Shown here: positions 3 through 8,396 of the stretch, piece by piece
Layout of the letters: each line of letters begins with the position of its first letter
Numbering within the stretch: the stretch's first letter is position 1
Assembly (NCBI GenBank): GCA_903938575.1
Contig: CAJADV010000048.1
Span: forward strand, 1-51,874
Direction of reading: 5' to 3'
Source: an uncultured Gammaproteobacteria bacterium
GTDB taxonomy: Bacteria > Pseudomonadota > Gammaproteobacteria > Pseudomonadales > UBA5518
DNA: 51,874 nt
The notes under the pieces: model-generated
What the model saw: only the letters and a program-made list of their open reading frames with translations
Database searches by the model: none
Told to the model about the DNA's origin: nothing
Made by a program: the position numbers and the translations under genes

Positions 3-1088
3 GCCTATCGCGAATCGCGTTTCGCGGCAGCGACGGCGCTCTACCGCGATGGCGAAGCGCAGCTGAAAGCGCTGCGGGACGGCATTCCGGCGCGGCTCGA
101 GGCGCGCCTCGCGGCAGCTGATGCGGCCTTCGCGGCGGGAGATCAGGCGGCAGCACTTGCCGCCTTCGCTGAGGCCGCTGCCATCGAGCCCGCCAACGAG
201 CGCGCCCGCAACGGACTGGAGCGGGCAGCCCGCCTCGATCATCTGAAATCCCTGCTGGGTACCGGAGCGGCGCAGGAATCCAGTGGGCAATTCGGGCCGG
301 CGGCTGCGAGCTATCGCGAGGCGCTGGCGCTGGACGGCGCCTGGGAGCCGGCGCGCGCGGCGCTCGCTGCGGTGGAGGCAAAAATCAACGCCGAGCGCAG
401 CGCGGCGCGCGTGTCTGCTGGCTACAGCGCACTCGCGGCAGGACGCCTTGAGGAGGCCAGAGGCGAATTCCGGTCTGCGCTCGCGCTGGGCGCCGGCACC
501 GAAGCGCGCGAGGGGCTGCAGCAGGCAGAGTTCCAGCTCGGGCAGCAAGGCATCGGCGCCCTGCTGCAGGCCGCTACCGAGGCGCAGGGTGCAGAGGATT
601 GGAAGCGGGCACTCCAGAGCTACGAGGCCGCGCTCGCCATCGACGCATCCCTTGGCCCGGCGCGCTCGGGCCGGGAACTCGCGCGCACGCGGCTCGCCCT
701 CGACGAGGCCCTCACCCGGCTGGCCGCACAGCCCGCGAAACTCGCCAGCGACAACGCACGCAGCGCCGCCGACAGGCTGATCGCCGCGGCGGCATCCATT
801 CCCGATCCCGGTCCACGCCTGTCGGCCCAGATAGCAAAGGCCCGCAGCGCGCTTGTCTCGATGCGCACCGAAATCCCGGTGCAGATCCGCTCCGATGGCA
901 AGACCGACGTCATCGTGTTCCGCGTCGGCAGTCTGGGGAGCTTCGCTGAAAAGCAACTCTCGCTGCTGCCCGGCGACTATGTGGCGGTGGGACGGCGCGA
1001 TGGCTACCGCGACGTGCGGGTGGAGTTCGCGCTGCGACCCGGCGCGCCGCCGCCCCCGGTGATCGTGCAATGCGGGCAGCAAATCTGA
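3..1088 (+). CDS. TPR-like repeat protein with C-terminal PEGA-like domain (5' end outside window)
   Basis: Frame 3 is open from the window edge (AYRESRFAAATALYRDGEAQLKAL...) to TGA 1086-1088. It has repeated Ala-rich helical-hairpin motifs of TPR type (e.g. AAFAEAAAIEPANERARNGLERAA, ASYREALALDGAWEPARAAL, QSYEAALAIDASLGPA). The C-terminal LPGDYVAVGRRDGYRDVRVEF resembles the PEGA repeats of the next gene. The stop overlaps the next start. Confidence 0.6.
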   Translation, partial: AYRESRFAAATALYRDGEAQLKALRDGIPARLEARLAAADAAFAAGDQAAALAAFAEAAAIEPANERARNGLERAARLDHLKSLLGTGAAQESSGQFGPAAASYREALALDGAWEPARAALAAVEAKINAERSAARVSAGYSALAAGRLEEARGEFRSALALGAGTEAREGLQQAEFQLGQQGIGALLQAATEAQGAEDWKRALQSYEAALAIDASLGPARSGRELARTRLALDEALTRLAAQPAKLASDNARSAADRLIAAAASIPDPGPRLSAQIAKARSALVSMRTEIPVQIRSDGKTDVIVFRVGSLGSFAEKQLSLLPGDYVAVGRRDGYRDVRVEFALRPGAPPPPVIVQCGQQI

Positions 1089-3160
1089 TGCGGCAAAGCA
1101 GCCCCCCTGACGATGCCGGCGATCACGAGACCCCGATCGCGCCGTTCAGCTATTCGCCCCCCGAGCCCGGTCTGCGCCCCCCCACGCGCCGCCGTTTCGG
1201 CCGCCGTGAACTCAGGATCGCCCTGCCCTTGCTGGGCGCCGCACTGTTCGCCGCTTTCCTGCTGAGCGCGCAGGCCCTGCGCCTGCAGCCCACACCGGAC
1301 AATGCCCGGGTCGATATCGACGGCGGGTTGCAGCTGGTGCTCGGCGATACCGTCCTGTTGCGTCCGGGACCCTACGTGGCAAGGGCCACGGCCGAGGGTT
1401 ACTACCCGCTGGAACAGGCCTTCACGGTAAAAGACACGGGCAACGACCCCCTCTCGCTCGAGCTGCGCAAACTGCCCGGCAAGCTGCTGCTCGAAACCCG
1501 GCCCGTGGCCGCCACCGCCATGCTTGATGGCGCACCGCTCGGCACGAGCAACGGTCAGCCTCTCGAAATCCCTGCCGGCGCCCACCGGCTGCGCGTCACG
1601 GCCGAGCGCTATCTCCCCGTCGAACAGGACATCCGCATCGAGGGTCTCGGCAAAGAACAGTCACTGGCACTCACTCTGGCGCCGGGCTGGGGTTCTTACC
1701 GCCTCGAAACCCAACCCCCCGGCGCCAGCGTCGAACTCGATGGCGCCAGCATCGGGACCACACCCACGACCCTCGAACTCATGCAGGGCCCCCGACAGTT
1801 GCAGCTGCGGCTCGCGAACCACCGGGACGAGAGCCTCTTCGTCGAGGCCAAGGCCGGCGAATCACGCAGCCTCGAGCCGCTTGTGCTGGTCCGTGCCGAT
1901 GCGCGGCTGCGCCTCAGCAGCACGCCCACGGGCGCCAGCATCACGCTAGATGGGCAGTTCCGCGGGACCGCGCCGCTCGAGATCGCGCTGGAGTCGGGCC
2001 AAGCCCACGAACTGATTGCCTTCAAGGCGGGGCATGAAAGAGCTACACGCCGCTTCACCGCCGTGGCGGGAGAGCAGCAGATGAACCTCGCACTGCGCGC
2101 GCTGACGGGTGATATACGGATCGCTGTTACGCCCGCCGATGCCGGCATCTACGCCGGAGAACGACTGCTCGCCCGCGGCAGCGCGATGCTCACACTGGCC
2201 GCCGGCCCGCAGACGCTCACGCTGCGCCGCGCGGGCCACGCCGACGAAACGCTGCGCGTCACGCCGCGCCCGGGTTATCCGCAGGAGTTCTCCGTCAGGC
2301 TGAAAACGCTGGCAGAAAAGCAGCAAGCCGCCGTGCGCAAGAGCGTGCGCAGCGCCGCCGGGCAGGAGCTCGCACTGATCCAGCCGGGCAGCTTCCGCAT
2401 GGGATCATCGCGACGCGAATCCGGGCGGCGCGCCAACGAGGCCATGCGTGACATCCGCCTGACGCGGGCCTTCTACATCAGCCTCACCGAGGTGAGCAAC
2501 GCAGAGTTCAGGCAGTTCCGCTCCGGGCATTCCTCCGGCAACTTCAAGGGCAAAAGCCTGAACGGCGATACGCAGCCGGCCACCAACCTCTCGTGGACGG
2601 AGGCCGCGCTGTACTGCAACTGGCTGAGCGAACGCGAGGGCCTGAAACCCTTCTATCGCATCGCAGGTAAGGCCGTGGCGGGTTTCGAGCCGGGCTCGAC
2701 GGGCTATCGCTTGCCCACCGAGGCCGAGTGGGGCTGGGCAGCCACCGTGAAACCTGATGGCTCGCTACTCCGCTTCGCCTGGGGTGATGCCATGCCACCG
2801 CCACCCAAGGCGGGCAATTACGCAGACAAGAGCGGCGAGACCATCCTCGGCGAGATCATCACCGGATACGACGACGGCTTCCCCGTCTCGGCGCCCGTGC
2901 GCAGCTTTGCATCCGATCGGCGTGGCCTGTTCGACCTCGGCGGCAATGCGGCAGAATGGGTCCACGACCTCTACGAGGCCGCACCCGGTGACGCCGGCAC
3001 GGCGACCGATCCACTGGGTGCGGACATCGGTGAGTATCACGTCATTCGCGGCGCGAGCTGGCGCAACGGCGGGCTGACGGAGCTGCGGCTGGCATTCCGC
3101 GATTACGGCCTCGATGCGCGCGCCGATGTCGGATTCCGCATAGCGAGGTATCTCAAGTGA
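1070..3160 (+). CDS. membrane-anchored PEGA-repeat protein with C-terminal FGE-sulfatase (SUMF1-like) domain, probably non-catalytic
   Basis: 696-aa ORF. An alternative in-frame ATG at 1088 shares one base with the upstream TGA. One TM segment (ALPLLGAALFAAFLLSAQAL) is followed by about five PEGA-like repeats (e.g. LETQPPGASVELDGASIGTTP, LSSTPTGASITLDGQFRGTAP). The FGE-sulfatase motifs are FRMGS, LTEVSNAEF, GYRLPTEAEWGWAA, GNAAEWV and IRGASWRNG. The Cys pair of true FGE after RG(G/A)S is absent. Confidence 0.85.
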   Translation: MRAANLMRQSSPPDDAGDHETPIAPFSYSPPEPGLRPPTRRRFGRRELRIALPLLGAALFAAFLLSAQALRLQPTPDNARVDIDGGLQLVLGDTVLLRPGPYVARATAEGYYPLEQAFTVKDTGNDPLSLELRKLPGKLLLETRPVAATAMLDGAPLGTSNGQPLEIPAGAHRLRVTAERYLPVEQDIRIEGLGKEQSLALTLAPGWGSYRLETQPPGASVELDGASIGTTPTTLELMQGPRQLQLRLANHRDESLFVEAKAGESRSLEPLVLVRADARLRLSSTPTGASITLDGQFRGTAPLEIALESGQAHELIAFKAGHERATRRFTAVAGEQQMNLALRALTGDIRIAVTPADAGIYAGERLLARGSAMLTLAAGPQTLTLRRAGHADETLRVTPRPGYPQEFSVRLKTLAEKQQAAVRKSVRSAAGQELALIQPGSFRMGSSRRESGRRANEAMRDIRLTRAFYISLTEVSNAEFRQFRSGHSSGNFKGKSLNGDTQPATNLSWTEAALYCNWLSEREGLKPFYRIAGKAVAGFEPGSTGYRLPTEAEWGWAATVKPDGSLLRFAWGDAMPPPPKAGNYADKSGETILGEIITGYDDGFPVSAPVRSFASDRRGLFDLGGNAAEWVHDLYEAAPGDAGTATDPLGADIGEYHVIRGASWRNGGLTELRLAFRDYGLDARADVGFRIARYLK

Positions 3161-3426
3161 ACAGATCTGCGCTGACTGCGATGCTGCTGATGCTCGTTGC
3201 CGCTGCGGGCGCCGTGGAGCCGGCTGCCAACCCCGCAGGCGCCACGCCAACCACGCCGCCCAGCGCCCAGCGCGCGGCACCGGTCGTACCGCAGCAGCCC
3301 GTAGAGACAGCACCCCCGATAAGCGCGGCCGACGAGGCCGCGGCCACGCGCCGGGCCGGCGAGCGCTTCAAACCCTCGGAGAAAATCTCCGAGGATCTCT
3401 CCGTGTCGTTCCCCTCTGACATCTGA
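3157..3426 (+). CDS. small secreted Pro/Ala-rich protein with acidic C-terminus (hypothetical)
   Basis: The GTG start forms a GTGA overlap with the upstream stop, and GAGG lies 8 nt upstream. Signal-peptide-like N-terminus MNRSALTAMLLMLVAAAGA|VEP. Pro/Ala-rich middle region. Acidic tail SEKISEDLSVSFPSDI. No family recognised. Confidence 0.55.
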   Translation: MNRSALTAMLLMLVAAAGAVEPAANPAGATPTTPPSAQRAAPVVPQQPVETAPPISAADEAAATRRAGERFKPSEKISEDLSVSFPSDI

Positions 3427-3477: not shown

Positions 3478-4290
3478 ATGAAACGACTTCTGGCCTCCGA
3501 GTTCCTCTTCCAGATATTTGCCCTGCTGTTGTCGTTGATCGTGGTGCACACGGTCTATGTGGCGGTGGTGTGGCCGCGCGCCGAGGCATACCTGAAGGCG
3601 CAGGCCGAGCGCATCGCCTCCGGCGACACCACGGCACAGCCGCAATCGATGTTCGTGATCCTGAAAGACTACGAGCAGGAGTCCGAGGTGATTCTGTTTC
3701 TCTGGTGCATGGCCATCATGGGATTCAAGGGCGTGCAGCTGCGCCACGAGCGCGCGCTGTTCCGCGAACCACTGGTGCAGGTGCCCGCCGGCACCAGCAT
3801 TCTTCCCGAGGATGCGCGCGACTTCCTGCGTCCGATCGAGGCGCTGCCGCCGGAATCCCGCGAATGCCTCCTGCCACGCGCGCTGGTCGCCGGCCTGCAA
3901 CGCTTCGCCATCACGCACGGGATCCAGGACGCCTACGGCGCGATCCGCGAGGCCTGCGTCACCGAGGGCGAGCGCCTTGACTCCGAGCTTTCGATGATCC
4001 GCTACATCGCCTGGGCCATACCGGCAATCGGCTTCATCGGCACCGTGCGCGGCATCGGGATGGCGCTTAGCGAGGCCTACCGTGCGGTGGAGGGCGATAT
4101 TGCGGGCGTGACCGACGCACTGGGCGTGGCCTTCAACTCCACGCTCGTGGCGCTGCTGCTCAGCATCATCCTGATGTTCCTGATCCACCAGCTGCAACTG
4201 CAGCAGGAGCGCCTCACGCTGAGCGCGCAGTCTTTCTGCGAAGGACGCCTGCTGCCGCACCTGAAGGTGGCGCGGGAGCTGCGTTCATGA
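3478..4290 (+). CDS. MotA/TolQ/ExbB-family proton-channel protein
   Basis: 270 aa with N-terminal TM helices. The C-terminal signature IAWAIPAIGFIGTVRGIGMAL...ALGVAFNSTLVALLLSIILMFLI matches the conserved ExbB/TolQ/MotA channel region (PxxGLxGTVxG ... TxxGL). Confidence 0.85.
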   Translation: MKRLLASEFLFQIFALLLSLIVVHTVYVAVVWPRAEAYLKAQAERIASGDTTAQPQSMFVILKDYEQESEVILFLWCMAIMGFKGVQLRHERALFREPLVQVPAGTSILPEDARDFLRPIEALPPESRECLLPRALVAGLQRFAITHGIQDAYGAIREACVTEGERLDSELSMIRYIAWAIPAIGFIGTVRGIGMALSEAYRAVEGDIAGVTDALGVAFNSTLVALLLSIILMFLIHQLQLQQERLTLSAQSFCEGRLLPHLKVARELRS

Positions 4291-5633
4291 GCCTTGCGGT
4301 ACTCGACCTGAACGATGCCTCGCTCACGCTGGGCGACGTCGACGGCATCCGCGCCCGCAGCCCGGGATTCGCGCTGCTCGCAGCCGAAGCGCCGCTGCTG
4401 GGCGAGGCAGCGCGAAGCAAGGCACGCATCGACCCGCGCAGCACCAACAGCCAGTTCTGGCTGCGCCTGGGTACCGAGCCGCTGCATCACGCGCCGGCCC
4501 ATACGCGCCACAACGCGGATCTCGGCTATCGCCACCTGCTGCACGTGCATGAACTGGCAGGACAGCCCGCCGAACTGTTGCTGGCGGTGCCGGGAAGTTT
4601 CTCGCGCGAGCAACTGGCCATGCTGCTCGGGATCGCCGAACGCTGCCCCTTCCGCGCCTGCGGGTTGGTCGACAGCGCCATCGCCGCCGCCAGCACCGAG
4701 TCTCTGTCCGGCGCTGCATTGCACCTCGAGTTGCAACTGCACCAGGCCGTGCTGACACAGATCGACCACGCCGACGGCATGCTCACGCGCGGAGCCGTGC
4801 GCGCGCTGCCGGGCGCCGGACTGGCGGCGCTGCAGGATCGCTGGGCGAGGCGCGCGGCCGAGTCCTTCATCCGGCAGTCGCGCTTCGACCCGCTCCACGC
4901 GGCGGCCACCGAGCAGCAACTCCATGACCGCCTGCCGGGCTGGCTCGAGGCGCTCGCCTCACAGGACAGCGTAGAGGCCGAACTCCAGCAGCAGAGCAAT
5001 CGCTACCGGGCAACGCTGCGCGCGGGCGAGATGCTGGACGCGGTGCAGTCGATCTACGCCGATCTGCTCGAAGCCCTCGCCCGCGAGGGCACGGACGCCA
5101 CGCTGCTGCTCGGTGCCCGCGCCGCGGGGCTGCCGCGTTTTGCCGAGCGTGTGCCCGAGGCAAGAACACTGGCAGACAATGCCGCCATCCGCGGCGCCCT
5201 GCGCCACGCCTCACTGGTTCGCAGCGAGGAGCGCGCGCTGCGCTTCGTCACGCGCTTGCCTGCCGAGCTAGCAGCGGCAAGCCTCCGCGTGCCCACACCT
5301 GTCAAGCCGGCGGCGACGCGCACACGCGCAAGCGCGCCCACGCACCTGGTCTCAGGCAGCAGCGCACTGCGTCTGGACAGCGGCACGCTGTATCTGCTCG
5401 GCAACGACGAGGAGGGCTGGGCGCTTTCGCGAAGTACCTCCGCCGCCAGCCGCTGCCGCCTGGAGCAGGACGGCACCGACTGGTACGCCTGCGCAGCGCC
5501 GGGGGTGTTGCTGCGAATCGACGGACTGCCAGCACCGGGACGCGTGCGGGTGGGCGCGGGTACGCACCTCGGCATCGAGAGCGAGGCACTGGTGTTCGTG
5601 ACCGAGGTCGTGGCCGGCGGCAATGGCGCGTAG
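4287..5633 (+). CDS. Hsp70/actin-fold-like protein with degenerate nucleotide-binding motifs and FHA-like C-terminal region
   Basis: ATGA overlap with the upstream stop. The N-terminus aligns by eye to DnaK. [13 protein letters not shown] aligns with [36 protein letters not shown] aligns with [65 protein letters not shown] aligns with [35 protein letters not shown]. The phosphate-2 motif DLGGGTFD is replaced by ELQLHQAV. The C-terminal ~90 aa (LYLLGNDE...SRCRLEQDG...LRIDGLP...[11 protein letters not shown]) is FHA-like but lacks canonical GR/SxxH. No TM segment. Confidence 0.55.
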   Translation: [448 protein letters not shown]

Positions 5634-6711
5634 ACGCGATTTCACGATCTTCAGCCTGTCCTTCCTGGACGTGATGTCCTGTGGCTTCGGCGCGACCATC
5701 CTGCTCTACCTGATCCTCGATCACCGGCAGGAAATGGACACCCGCCAAAAGAGCAGCGCACTGCGCGGCGAGGTCGCGTTCCTCGAGCGCGAGGTGAAAG
5801 AAGGCACCGTGGACCTGGCGGAACTGCGGAACACGCTGTCGATGGTCGATGACTCCCTCGCCGAGGCGAACGGGCGCTCCCGCCAGATTCTCGCGCAGAT
5901 CGCCGAGCGCCGCGACGAGACCGCCGAGGGAAAGGACGACACCCTCGCCCAGCGCGAGCATGTGAACCGCCTGAAGACCGATCTCAAGCAACTCGAGGAA
6001 AACAACGAACGCCTGCGCGCCGAGGGCGAGAAACAGCGCGGGCAGGATGTACGGCAGTTCCAGGGCGACGGCGACCGCCAGTACCTTACCGGGCTGAAGC
6101 TCGGCGGACGGCGCATCCTGGTGCTGCTAGACCGCTCGGCAAGCATGCTCGACTACAGCCTGGTGAACGTGATCCGCCTGCGCAACATGCCCGCACCGGT
6201 GCAGCTGCGCTCGGCCAAGTGGCAACGCGCGGTCGCCACGGTCGACTGGCTGAGCACCCAGTTGCCCGAGGGCAGCCAATACCAGATCTACAGCTTCAAC
6301 ACGCGCGCCGAACCGGTGGTGGAAGGCAGCGCAGGCAAATGGCTGCAAGTCGCCGACCGCGAGCAGCTGAACGGAGCTATCGCGAGGCTGCAGCAACTGG
6401 TGCCGGCCGAGGGCACGAGTCTCGCGAACGCCTTCGAGGTGGCATCAAAGCTCTCACCTGCACCGGACAACATCTACCTGATCACCGACGGCCTGCCCAC
6501 ACAAGGCGCCACGGGACCCAGCGGCCCCAAGGTGAGCGGACGTGACCGCCAACGCCTGTTCAATCAGGCCCTGGAGAAGCTGCCCAAAGGCATACCCGTG
6601 AACGTCATCCTGGCGCCCATGGAGGGCGATCCGATGGCCGCCTCGGCGCTCTGGCAGCTGGCGATATCGACGCGGGGTGCATTCCTCGCGCCGGCACGGG
6701 ACTGGCCATGA
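5623..6711 (+). CDS. ExbD/TolR-like TM anchor - coiled coil - vWA domain protein (paralog 1)
   Basis: The N-terminus MARRRDFTIFSLSFLDVMSCGFGATILL resembles the ExbD/TolR TM helix (E. coli ExbD INVTPFIDVMLVLLIIF) and keeps the Asp (codon 5668-5670). Residues ~45-140 are heptad-like and charged. The vWA domain has a MIDAS DxSxS motif, LLDRSASM (6130-6144), followed by EGTSL and LITDG. Confidence 0.8.
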   Translation: MARRRDFTIFSLSFLDVMSCGFGATILLYLILDHRQEMDTRQKSSALRGEVAFLEREVKEGTVDLAELRNTLSMVDDSLAEANGRSRQILAQIAERRDETAEGKDDTLAQREHVNRLKTDLKQLEENNERLRAEGEKQRGQDVRQFQGDGDRQYLTGLKLGGRRILVLLDRSASMLDYSLVNVIRLRNMPAPVQLRSAKWQRAVATVDWLSTQLPEGSQYQIYSFNTRAEPVVEGSAGKWLQVADREQLNGAIARLQQLVPAEGTSLANAFEVASKLSPAPDNIYLITDGLPTQGATGPSGPKVSGRDRQRLFNQALEKLPKGIPVNVILAPMEGDPMAASALWQLAISTRGAFLAPARDWP

Positions 6712-7706
6712 GCCGCCGTCGTCGTGCACCGGAGGAGTTCAGCCTCTCCTTCCTGGACGTGATCTGCTGCGGCTTCGGGGCAATCATCCTGCTGCTGATC
6801 ATCACGCGGGTCTCCGCCCCGGTCGTACTCGAGGAGAGCACGCGCGATCTGGAGTCGCGGATCGCGGCTCTGCAGGAGCAGCTGTTCCGGCTCCGCGGCG
6901 AGTCGACGGTACTGAACCGCGACCTGACGGCACGACAAGAGCAGCTCTCCGAGGTGATCGACAAGGTCGCCCGCCTGGAGCGCGAACTCTCGTCGATCAA
7001 AGGCGAGTTCGCCGCCAGCGATGCCGACTCCGAGCTGAACTCACGGCTGGTGGGGCAACTCGAGAAAGCCAGGCAGCGCCTCAGCGACGAGATGAAACGT
7101 CTGCTCGGCGCCCAGGGCGGACGTCGCAACGACGCCATCGGTGGCATACCAGTGGACAGCGAATACGTGATTTTCATCATCGACACCTCGGGGAGCATGT
7201 TCAATTACGCATGGCCGCGCGCGCAGCAGGAGATGATCAACATTCTCGACCTTTACCCGAAGGTGAAAGGGATACAGGTGCTCGATGACGAGGGCGGTTA
7301 TATGTTCTCGAGCTATCGCGGGCAGTGGATTCCCGACACGCCCGCGCGGCGCAAGGCGATCATCCAGCGTTTTGCCAGCTGGAACCCCTACTCCAACAGC
7401 AGCCCGGTCGAAGGCATCGTGTTCGCGATCCGGAGCTTCTACGAGCCCGGACGCAAGATCAGCCTCTACGTGCTGGGCGACGAGTTCACCGGCAACTCGA
7501 TAGCGCAGGTGATCGACGTGGTGGACAAGATCAACCGCGAGGGCCCACAGGGCGAGCGGCTGGTGCGGATCCACGCCGTGGGCTTCCCGACCCAGTTTGG
7601 CAATCCGGCCCAGTACCAGATAACCGGCATCCGCTTTGCCACCCTGATGCGCGATCTGTCGTGGAAAAACAACGGCACCTTCGTGGGCCTGAACGACTAC
7701 CGCTGA
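6708..7706 (+). CDS. ExbD/TolR-like TM anchor - coiled coil - vWA domain protein (paralog 2)
   Basis: ATGA overlap with the upstream stop. The N-terminus EEFSLSFLDVICCGFGAIILLLII is nearly identical in pattern to paralog 1, with the Asp codon at 6756-6758. A coiled-coil-like segment follows. The vWA MIDAS motif is IIDTSGSM (7182-7196). Confidence 0.8.
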   Translation: MSRRRRAPEEFSLSFLDVICCGFGAIILLLIITRVSAPVVLEESTRDLESRIAALQEQLFRLRGESTVLNRDLTARQEQLSEVIDKVARLERELSSIKGEFAASDADSELNSRLVGQLEKARQRLSDEMKRLLGAQGGRRNDAIGGIPVDSEYVIFIIDTSGSMFNYAWPRAQQEMINILDLYPKVKGIQVLDDEGGYMFSSYRGQWIPDTPARRKAIIQRFASWNPYSNSSPVEGIVFAIRSFYEPGRKISLYVLGDEFTGNSIAQVIDVVDKINREGPQGERLVRIHAVGFPTQFGNPAQYQITGIRFATLMRDLSWKNNGTFVGLNDYR

Positions 7707-7775
7707 GCACGGGCTTGGATACCCGGTGGCATTGACCCTATGATCCGCCTGCCCCTTGTCCCCGAGCGCGAACGC

Positions 7776-8396
7776 ATGCGCACACGACTCCTGCTGTTGC
7801 TTGTCTGCGTATTGCTGCCGGCCTGCGGGCCGCAGGTCGTGCAGATGAAAGCACTGAACGAATTTCCCCGCCCGCTGGTCGATCCACTGCCGATACGCGT
7901 GGGTTTGCACATCCCGCCCGAGTTCGCCGCCTACACCTACCACGAAAAGCGCCCGGGACGGGCGGGCCAGGAGTGGACCATCAGCATCGGGCCGCCGCAG
8001 GCACAGGTGTTTCAGGAAATGCTGGGCGCACTGTTCAGCGGCGTCGATGTGCTGGATTCGCCAACGGCGGGCGGCAATGGTCTTGCCGCCGTGATCGTGC
8101 CCGGCGTGGCGGAATTCCAGTTCGCGCTGCCCGCCGACACCAAGGCCAAGGTCTTCGAGATCTGGGTCAAATACGATCTTGGAATCCGCACCGCCAAGGG
8201 CGAGGAGATCGGTCACTGGCAGTTCACCGCCTATGGCAAGACGCCCACCGCGTTCCTGAAATCCGACGAGGAGGCGATCCGCGCGGCCACCATTGTTGCG
8301 CTGCGCGATGCGGGTGCCTCGCTGGTGAGCGGGCTGGAGCGCGACCCCAGGCTGCGCGAGTGGCTGGGCGTGGAGCAGCCCGCCGACAAGCCCTGA
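7776..8396 (+). CDS. putative lipoprotein (hypothetical)
   Basis: The ORF is open from ATG 7740. ATG 7776 gives MRTRLLLLLVCVLLPAC|G, which has a signal peptide and a lipobox-like LPAC. No family recognised. It is the last gene of the + strand operon. Confidence 0.55.
   Translation: MRTRLLLLLVCVLLPACGPQVVQMKALNEFPRPLVDPLPIRVGLHIPPEFAAYTYHEKRPGRAGQEWTISIGPPQAQVFQEMLGALFSGVDVLDSPTAGGNGLAAVIVPGVAEFQFALPADTKAKVFEIWVKYDLGIRTAKGEEIGHWQFTAYGKTPTAFLKSDEEAIRAATIVALRDAGASLVSGLERDPRLREWLGVEQPADKP

Follow-up and report, generated by a model that had tools for sequence, protein, structure and literature searches.

The nucleotide-binding domains (NBDs) of Hsp70 proteins are among the most conserved ATPases. 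The pairing of a TolQ-like motor with heterologous vWA proteins that carry a trans-pore helix ('TPH-vWA') is known from an in-silico prediction (Mol Biol Evol 2025, PMC12204202), in which both the 5:2 stoichiometry and the proton-driven rotation are predicted only. Here we describe a gene for a pseudo-Hsp70/FHA protein at positions 4287..5633 (+) of a 51,874-nucleotide stretch of DNA from an uncultured gammaproteobacterium (contig CAJADV010000048.1 of assembly GCA_903938575.1; the whole stretch is referred to as the window). Its operon corresponds to the TPH-vWA system, with a TolQ-like gene, no tolR or exbD, and two paralogous proteins that combine a vWA domain with an Asp-bearing transmembrane (TM) helix, the first of which, vWA1, corresponds to the 'TPH-vWA' of PMC12204202. 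The text of that paper mentions Hsp70 nowhere, and its only 'FHA' string is FhaC; the pseudo-Hsp70/FHA gene and the accompanying PEGA-FGE, TPR(-kinase) and lipoprotein genes are thus undescribed components. We found no literature that connects TolQ/vWA systems with an Hsp70-like/FHA protein. The protein described here adds a new, unannotated variant to the Hsp70 superfamily and an undescribed part to a machine known from one computational prediction. With the NBDs of DnaK, HscA, BiP and the atypical Ssz1 it has in common the four-subdomain fold and co-linear sequence remnants; unlike Hsp70, it lacks the phosphate-1, phosphate-2 and adenosine motifs, the catalytic Lys and Glu, the substrate-binding domain and the lid.

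An AlphaFold2 model of the full protein, built on an alignment of 43 sequences, has a pLDDT of 93.2 and a pTM of 0.77 and consists of a globular part (residues 1-325) and a beta-rich domain (350-440), with disorder between them at 331-346. The globular part (4287..5261, +; pLDDT >90) adopts the two-lobed NBD fold, with subdomains IA, IB, IIA and IIB. Foldseek comparison of the full model with the PDB gave Hsp70 proteins as all of the best 50 matches (DnaK, BiP, Ssz1, Ssb and Hsp110, E 1e-15 to 5e-14), with TM-scores, normalised to NBD-only targets, of 0.66-0.71 over ~375-385 columns; actin, MreB, ParM and FtsA were not found among these 50. A preliminary description, made from the sequence alone, had likened the N-terminal ~250 residues to the DnaK NBD. 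The Hsp70/ASKHA-like fold is borne out by the model and the structural search, and its extent is to be corrected to ~325 residues. Alignment by hhalign with DnaK and HscA NBDs drawn from related genomes was weak yet co-linear (probability 57-61%, E 1.5e-5 to 8e-5), one run giving 315 co-linear columns at a probability of 57% and E 1.5e-5, and it reproduced the two segment alignments of the preliminary description, namely a 17-residue segment with LVGQAAKRQSVTNPQNT and a 13-residue segment with a 12-residue Hsp70 segment.

Several short stretches recall their Hsp70 counterparts (given second): SPGFA / TPSVVA; DPR.T / NPQNT (NP.NT-like); VPGSFS.EQ / VPAYFND.Q; VDSAIAAA / INEPTAAA (AAA / TAAA); and RFDPL / NDPLA in subdomain IIB. 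A 12-residue family signature in this subdomain (residues 199-210; 4881..4916, +) aligns with Hsp70 G(I/F)D..NDPLA.QRL, and within it R199, P202, E209 and Q210 are the same in all 43 aligned sequences. At its end the NBD-like part has ALRFVTRLP (317-325), aligned to the hydrophobic interdomain linker of Hsp70, DVLLLDVTPL (FVTRLP / LDVTPL). With these recognisable co-linear remnants and structural matches that are all Hsp70, the protein descends from a true Hsp70 and does not merely share a generic ASKHA fold. What follows the linker differs: the C-terminal substrate-binding beta-domain and helical lid of Hsp70 are absent from the 448-residue protein, in which residues 350-440 form an FHA fold, and no DnaJ or GrpE partner is encoded in the operon. 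Neither the protein nor any of the 43 relatives matched PF00012 at E<=0.01, and a six-frame PF00012 search of five genomes carrying the gene matched only DnaK, HscA and MreB-like loci. In these searches the ordinary dnaK of the window genome was found split between contigs C586 and C244, an assembly artefact; a third PF00012 match in that genome is a ~377-residue protein on C590, and the ~350-residue matches in related genomes are called MreB-like by length only.

Every nucleotide-contacting element of the Hsp70 fold is replaced across the family. At the phosphate-1 loop, DLNDAS (residues 7-12; 4305..4322, +) stands for DLGTTN, with GTT exchanged for L8-N9-D10 and D10 invariant in the 43 sequences. 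The catalytic Lys (DnaK K70) is replaced by the nearly invariant W58 (4458..4460, +), as placed by conservation and by the global hhalign run (FWLRLG / AIKRLVG), and the catalytic Glu (DnaK E171) by a variable residue, S130 in this protein. At the phosphate-2 loop, ELQLHQ (148-153; 4728..4745, +) stands for DLGGGT, Q150-L151-H152-Q153 taking the place of GGGT, with H152 invariant in the 43. The GG of the adenosine motif has become A277-R278 (GG.TR.P to A277-R278...P283), and P217, L220 and A224 in subdomain IIB align with the DnaK helix AEKAKIELS, which we take to carry the adenosine contacts E267, K270 and S274 (DnaK numbering). Both Mg-coordinating Asp positions of Hsp70 are still acidic (D7 and E148 here, D/E7 and D/E148 in the family).

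The replacement of DLGTTNS by DLNDASL given in the preliminary description was thus read correctly, and of the second exchange proposed there, DLGGGTFD by ELQLHQAV, the loss of the Gly-rich loop stands and the register rests on model topology. In both global and local runs hhalign placed DLGGG over IDHADG instead of ELQLHQ. We kept the latter register because DSSP assigns strands to 144-149, 153-162 and 165-175, the first three to follow the 'connect' helix, an arrangement that matches subdomain IIA and puts ELQLHQ in the first beta-hairpin loop of that subdomain; the Gly-rich loop is missing in either register. In the 43-sequence alignment, which reaches down to 30% identity, no canonical ATPase motif was found, nor was a canonical loop among 16 readable rows of further genomic copies (L034 was left out of this comparison, the wrong open reading frame having been taken). 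The substitutes are themselves conserved, as LND, W58, LQLHQ, RFDP and TEQ, and the residues invariant in the 43 (D10, H152, R199, P202, E209 and Q210) change in none but the most divergent of the genomic copies. Judged by this pattern, the proteins are a pseudo-ATPase family under purifying selection. The possibility that this is a mere divergent copy whose orthologs retain canonical motifs is therefore answered in the negative, and the non-catalytic Hsp70-fold scaffold suggested at the outset is well supported by the fold together with the family-wide motif loss. A pseudogene or decayed single copy was rejected because the frame is intact, the fold is predicted with high confidence and conservation extends over the whole family.

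A flexible linker (residues 326-349; 5262..5333, +), with pLDDT <50 at 331-346, joins the NBD-like part to an FHA-fold beta-sandwich (350-440; 5334..5606, +), which starts with a family-specific PTHL motif containing the invariant H353. Modelled alone, this domain has a pLDDT of 94.5, and its best 50 PDB matches are all FHA domains, those of YscD and PscD included (TM-score 0.5-0.7, E 1e-3 to 5e-2). The family profile likewise matched FHA structures in the PDB (afadin, KIF13B, FhaA/Rv0020c, Ki-67 and EssC, E down to 1e-6). No Pfam FHA model matched the protein itself; among the 43 relatives, nine matched PF00498 (best E 5.6e-13) and eight PF16697 (Yop-YscD_cpl, the cytoplasmic FHA family of type III secretion YscD). 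The FHA relationship proposed for the last ~90 residues is borne out, model, Foldseek and family profile all agreeing on the FHA beta-sandwich, an 11-stranded fold. Also as first described, the canonical GR and SxxH residues are lacking: the phosphothreonine (pThr)-binding positions read LLGND, SRCR and PGVLLRIDG, so that the GR Arg, the SxxH His and the S/T-N-G loop (the pThr-binding Arg, His and Asn) are all replaced.

The gene encodes 448 residues (47.6 kDa, pI 6.3), an open reading frame supported by its homologs. Its start overlaps the TGA stop of the upstream channel gene (tcATGAgc, ATGA at 4287-4290), and its 3' end overlaps the start of vWA1 by 11 nucleotides (5623-5633). No TM segment was found, the maximum 19-residue Kyte-Doolittle score being 1.27, and the protein is a cytoplasmic, two-domain one; the ATGA coupling to the channel gene and the cytoplasmic location had both been anticipated in the preliminary description. 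The open reading frame matched no Pfam, NCBIfam or PADLOC model, and a phmmer search of the PDB gave no match. A catalogued defence protein was considered and rejected, as PADLOC returned nothing for it; weak ZorA-like matches came from the channel protein only.

The family is sizeable. At least 230 full-length homologs were found, all named 'hypothetical', and every homolog with a source name is 'hypothetical' or 'uncharacterised'. When 1.84 billion representative proteins, clustered at 50% identity, were searched with a profile, 1,269 clusters were returned at E<=1e-30 and 4,456 at E<=1e-3, a total low enough to indicate that the profile stops short of ordinary Hsp70s. The best 150 representatives are 361-505 residues long, mostly 420-490. 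Natural fusions were sought as Rosetta stones and rejected: the long open frames at two loci (L039 and L030) are out-of-frame GC-rich artefacts, and the best 150 representatives remain within the lengths just given. The gene occurs in ~5% of the genomes sampled from the class of the window and in 5 of 301 in Acidobacteriota; among the carriers with names are Halieaceae, Microbulbifer, Pseudoalteromonas denitrificans, Porticoccus, Pseudohongiella, Steroidobacteraceae, Desulfobacterales and Thermoanaerobaculia. Of the named relatives, a freshwater Pseudomonadales metagenome-assembled genome comes nearest to the window. In three small genomes (L044, L045 and L046; 1.7-2.0 Mb) the protein takes an NBD-only form of ~310 residues without FHA. 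There the operon is shortened, LELND is replaced by R(I/V)D(G/S)Y, and the proteins sit on a very long tree branch.

The window (GC 63-70%) opens with a run of overlapping genes on the same strand. A TM-anchored TPR protein is cut by the contig end, its C-terminal 361 residues lying at 3..1088 (+) and its N-terminus on contig C310. It is followed by a conserved operon member, a TM-anchored PEGA-repeat/FGE-sulfatase-fold protein (PEGA-FGE) of 696 residues (1070..3160, +), by a small secreted protein of 89 residues at a conserved operon position (3157..3426, +), and by the TolQ/MotA/ExbB-like channel gene (3478..4290, +; PF01618 at E 2e-13). Downstream of the pseudo-Hsp70 gene, vWA1 (5623..6711, +) comprises a short Arg-rich N-terminal tail, a TM helix of ExbD/TolR type that bears an Asp (SFLDV), a coiled coil and a vWA domain with a metal ion-dependent adhesion site (MIDAS) reading DRSAS, and its paralog vWA2 (6708..7706, +) has the same TM (SFLDV), coiled-coil and vWA parts with a DTSGS MIDAS. 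The Asp of the trans-pore helix, D17 in vWA2, is invariant in 20 orthologs. No ExbD, TolR or MotB model matched within the operon. A lipoprotein (7740..8396, +) is the last conserved operon gene in the window.

The operon is strongly conserved, comprises ~10 genes and is found in Gammaproteobacteria, Desulfobacterota and Acidobacteriota, usually in the order lipoprotein(s), TPR, PEGA-FGE, small protein, channel, pseudo-Hsp70, vWA1, vWA2 and lipoproteins (with an M48 peptidase in some cases); it recurs in Halioglobus and in an acidobacterium. The order channel, pseudo-Hsp70, vWA1, vWA2 is present at loci L001 and L002 and in 16 of 17 surveyed genomes. In the exception (L036, G129:C51) the channel gene follows vWA2 and the pseudo-Hsp70 gene still precedes vWA1, showing that adjacency to the channel gene is not obligatory. 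Among 66 named loci, found using the vWA2 alignment and having both channel and vWA1 in view, the gene lies between these two in 61, across three phyla, which upholds the initial description of an insertion between the channel gene and its ExbD-like partners. It is absent from the other five clusters (Thiogranum, Sedimenticolaceae and three others), and no copy was found elsewhere in their genomes; the machine does not strictly require it, and the protein is an accessory that is nearly always present rather than an essential core part.

Three features of the neighbouring membrane proteins were noted alongside this survey. In the five clusters without the gene, the channel protein has (D/E)LPIGxED where its counterparts have the cytoplasmic segment EG(T/M)xILPED, and this ILPED versus IG.ED difference may reflect a docking site or just phylogeny. 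Both vWA proteins have very short Arg-rich cytoplasmic tails before the Asp-bearing TM helix (MARRRDFT in vWA1, window 5623-5670, and MSRRRRAPEEF in vWA2, 6708-6760), for which the acidic former nucleotide cleft (D7, D10 and E148) would be a plausible partner. Finally, PEGA-FGE orthologs of ~800 residues have a weakly FHA-like cytoplasmic N-terminal domain of ~100 residues, followed by a Pro-rich linker and a TM helix. Its profile matched the Ki-67 FHA structure in the PDB at E 0.002, then EmbR, KIF13B, afadin and EssC. This N-terminus was seen at loci L123, L127, L128, L130, L002, L146, L107, L103 and L116, is present in four of four examined clusters without the pseudo-Hsp70 gene, and is missing from the 696-residue copy of the window. 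Since an FHA fold occurs in the pseudo-Hsp70 protein and an FHA-like one at the N-terminus of PEGA-FGE, FHA folds on the cytoplasmic side are a recurring feature of the system.

The FHA domain of the pseudo-Hsp70 protein co-varies with a kinase encoded in the operon. This comparison was made on 20-kb regions, as 6-kb flanks had missed the TPR gene. At eight loci (L155, L156, L157, L159, L160, L154, L033 and L041) the TPR protein encoded upstream of PEGA-FGE has an N-terminal kinase or kinase-like domain, and in the kinase lineages it is a transmembrane Ser/Thr kinase-TPR fusion. Pfam Pkinase was confirmed in six of them (E 1e-29 to 1e-45; four from the Acidobacteriota survey, one from Desulfobacterales and one from Thermoanaerobaculia), and the remaining two were judged by motif or by eye: the gammaproteobacterial L033, which has HRD and DFG motifs, and L041. 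The L041 protein has HLDLTPGN in place of HRDLKP.N and, on that basis, may be a pseudokinase. In all eight kinase loci the FHA domain of the pseudo-Hsp70 protein keeps S[RK]xH, and in six of the eight also [ST]xG[TS]..N; in all 18 kinase-less loci, the window included, S[RK]xH is missing and the FHA domain is degenerate or absent. In a tree of the NBD-like domain the kinase-bearing forms make up one supported clade with two nested joint losses, giving three coincident changes with 26 of 26 rows concordant. The window genome is kinase-less, the TPR N-terminus on contig C310 being a 36-residue tail and a TM helix. That contig (L162, 1-3492) holds the upstream end of the operon, with a Ser-rich 401-residue lipoprotein, a 391-residue lipoprotein and the TPR N-terminus; its overlap with the first ~450 nucleotides of the window shows ~95%, not 100%, protein identity, which suggests strain heterogeneity in the assembly.

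On balance, and with moderate confidence, we read the protein as a non-catalytic cytoplasmic adaptor or regulator of the TolQ-like/vWA machine. Energy would come from the proton channel and not from this protein, which would dock through its FHA domain and possibly also through the conserved former nucleotide cleft (D/E7, D10, W58, D/E148 and H152); it would be likely to bind either the TolQ-like pentamer at its cytoplasmic face or the operon membrane proteins at their cytoplasmic tails. Coupling to the cytoplasmic face of the channel, which we infer, agrees with the almost unchanging position of the gene and with the way in which the FHA domain co-varies with the kinase. In the relatives with a kinase-TPR protein, docking would probably depend on phosphorylation, as the ancestral state, and in the kinase-less lineage of the window the pThr pocket has decayed and the interaction would be constitutive, as for the FHA folds of YscD/PrgH, EssC and GltG. 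The five clusters without the gene and the three genomes with an NBD-only form speak for a regulatory rather than a core role. Several observations weigh against this reading. Even the 'canonical' FHA tails of relatives lack the GR Arg (GT, GV or GL instead), and phosphopeptide binding is, from these residues, uncertain even in the kinase-bearing relatives. The kinase/FHA co-variation amounts to only three evolutionary events, just one of them on well-supported branches, and is not statistically significant. A docking-site indel was sought by comparing TolQ-like proteins with and without an accompanying pseudo-Hsp70 gene, and none was found. The invariant D10 and H152 could, furthermore, form a new small-molecule or metal site rather than being purely structural.

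This last point leads to one of the alternatives, an atypical active NTPase or small-ligand sensor in which the Asp/His/Trp cluster binds a nucleotide, a metal or a second messenger and switches the motor. D10 and H152 are invariant and W58 nearly so in the 43 sequences, though none of the three is constant in the genomic copies that diverge most; the Mg-coordinating acidic positions are retained, and the site is more conserved than expected for a dead one. However, nothing remains of the Gly-rich phosphate loops or of the catalytic Lys and Glu, the residues at the positions of the adenosine-contacting helix of subdomain IIB are lost too, and the added negative charge of D10 is unfavourable to phosphate binding; we regard such an activity as quite improbable. 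It is somewhat easier to entertain, though still unlikely, that the protein acts as an ATP-independent assembly chaperone or plug, holding the N-terminal trans-pore helices of the vWA proteins or capping an empty TolQ-like pentamer against proton leak before leaving. That the gene is immediately flanked by the channel gene on one side and by the two axle genes on the other, overlapping its neighbour at either end, would suit this role, as would the Hsp70 ancestry visible in the retained interdomain linker and the dispensability of the gene in 5 of 66 clusters; but the substrate-binding domain of a chaperone is absent, an FHA fold being found instead, and the co-variation of that fold with the operon kinase favours signalling over folding. 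The ASKHA fold, together with the coupling of the actin-fold MreB to the Agl TolQR-like motor in Myxococcus (PMC11761067), also raises the idea of an actin-like polymer or positioning cytoskeleton comparable to MreB, ParM or FtsA. We consider this the least likely rival and very improbable, given that the best 50 structural matches are all Hsp70 and include no actin, MreB, ParM or FtsA, and that nucleotide-driven polymerisation is unlikely without a nucleotide site.

The adaptor or regulator that we favour also has a stronger form, in which copies of the protein are a stoichiometric subunit of a new class of 5:2 ion-driven motor, docked under the TolQ-like pentamer as a clutch, brake or torque receiver analogous to FliG or to GltG-FHA/MreB, and ancestrally switched by the transmembrane Ser/Thr kinase of the operon. 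We hold this to be doubtful; if true, it would be the first Hsp70-derived pseudoenzyme to serve as a structural part of a rotary motor. In either form the family documents an unusual fate for an Hsp70: ~1,270 clusters in which the nucleotide contacts are gone, an FHA domain stands in for the substrate-binding domain, and the gene travels with a proton channel. The family goes undetected by current annotation, and the protein offers the one obvious way into the TolQ-like/vWA machine from its cytoplasmic side. The kinase/FHA co-variation suggests phospho-control of a Tol/Exb-type motor, a testable hypothesis for which culturable hosts exist in Halioglobus japonicus, Seongchinamella unica, Microbulbifer echini and Pseudoalteromonas denitrificans.

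Actin/Hsp70-superfamily folds are known as cytoplasmic adaptors in other envelope machines, namely the cytoplasmic domain of GspL/EpsL in type II secretion systems and PilM in type IV pili. PilM binds the tail of PilN and is encoded just upstream of pilN-pilO, and the genes for both GspL and PilM adjoin a pair of genes for bitopic coiled-coil membrane proteins. Both folds are actin-like and not Hsp70-like, however, and PilM still binds ATP; to our knowledge, neither has an FHA domain or accompanies a 5:2-type channel. The Hsp70-containing conflict systems described previously (eLife 2020, PMC7159879) were considered and set aside as different, being GTPase-centred and containing an active Hsp70 with GrpE and DnaJ. 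The closest functional precedents are YscD/PrgH/PscD of type III secretion, EssC/YukB of type VII secretion and GltG of Myxococcus, which, like the protein described here, place an FHA beta-sandwich without pThr-binding residues on the cytoplasmic side of an envelope machine; the FHA domain of GltG is predicted to sit on AglR, a TolQ-like pentamer, at its cytoplasmic face (PMC11761067). Unlike in YscD, EssC and GltG, the FHA domain is here tethered to a soluble pseudo-Hsp70 and not fused to a membrane protein, and, unlike those phospho-independent folds, its relatives from kinase-containing operons keep SRxH and TxGT..N.

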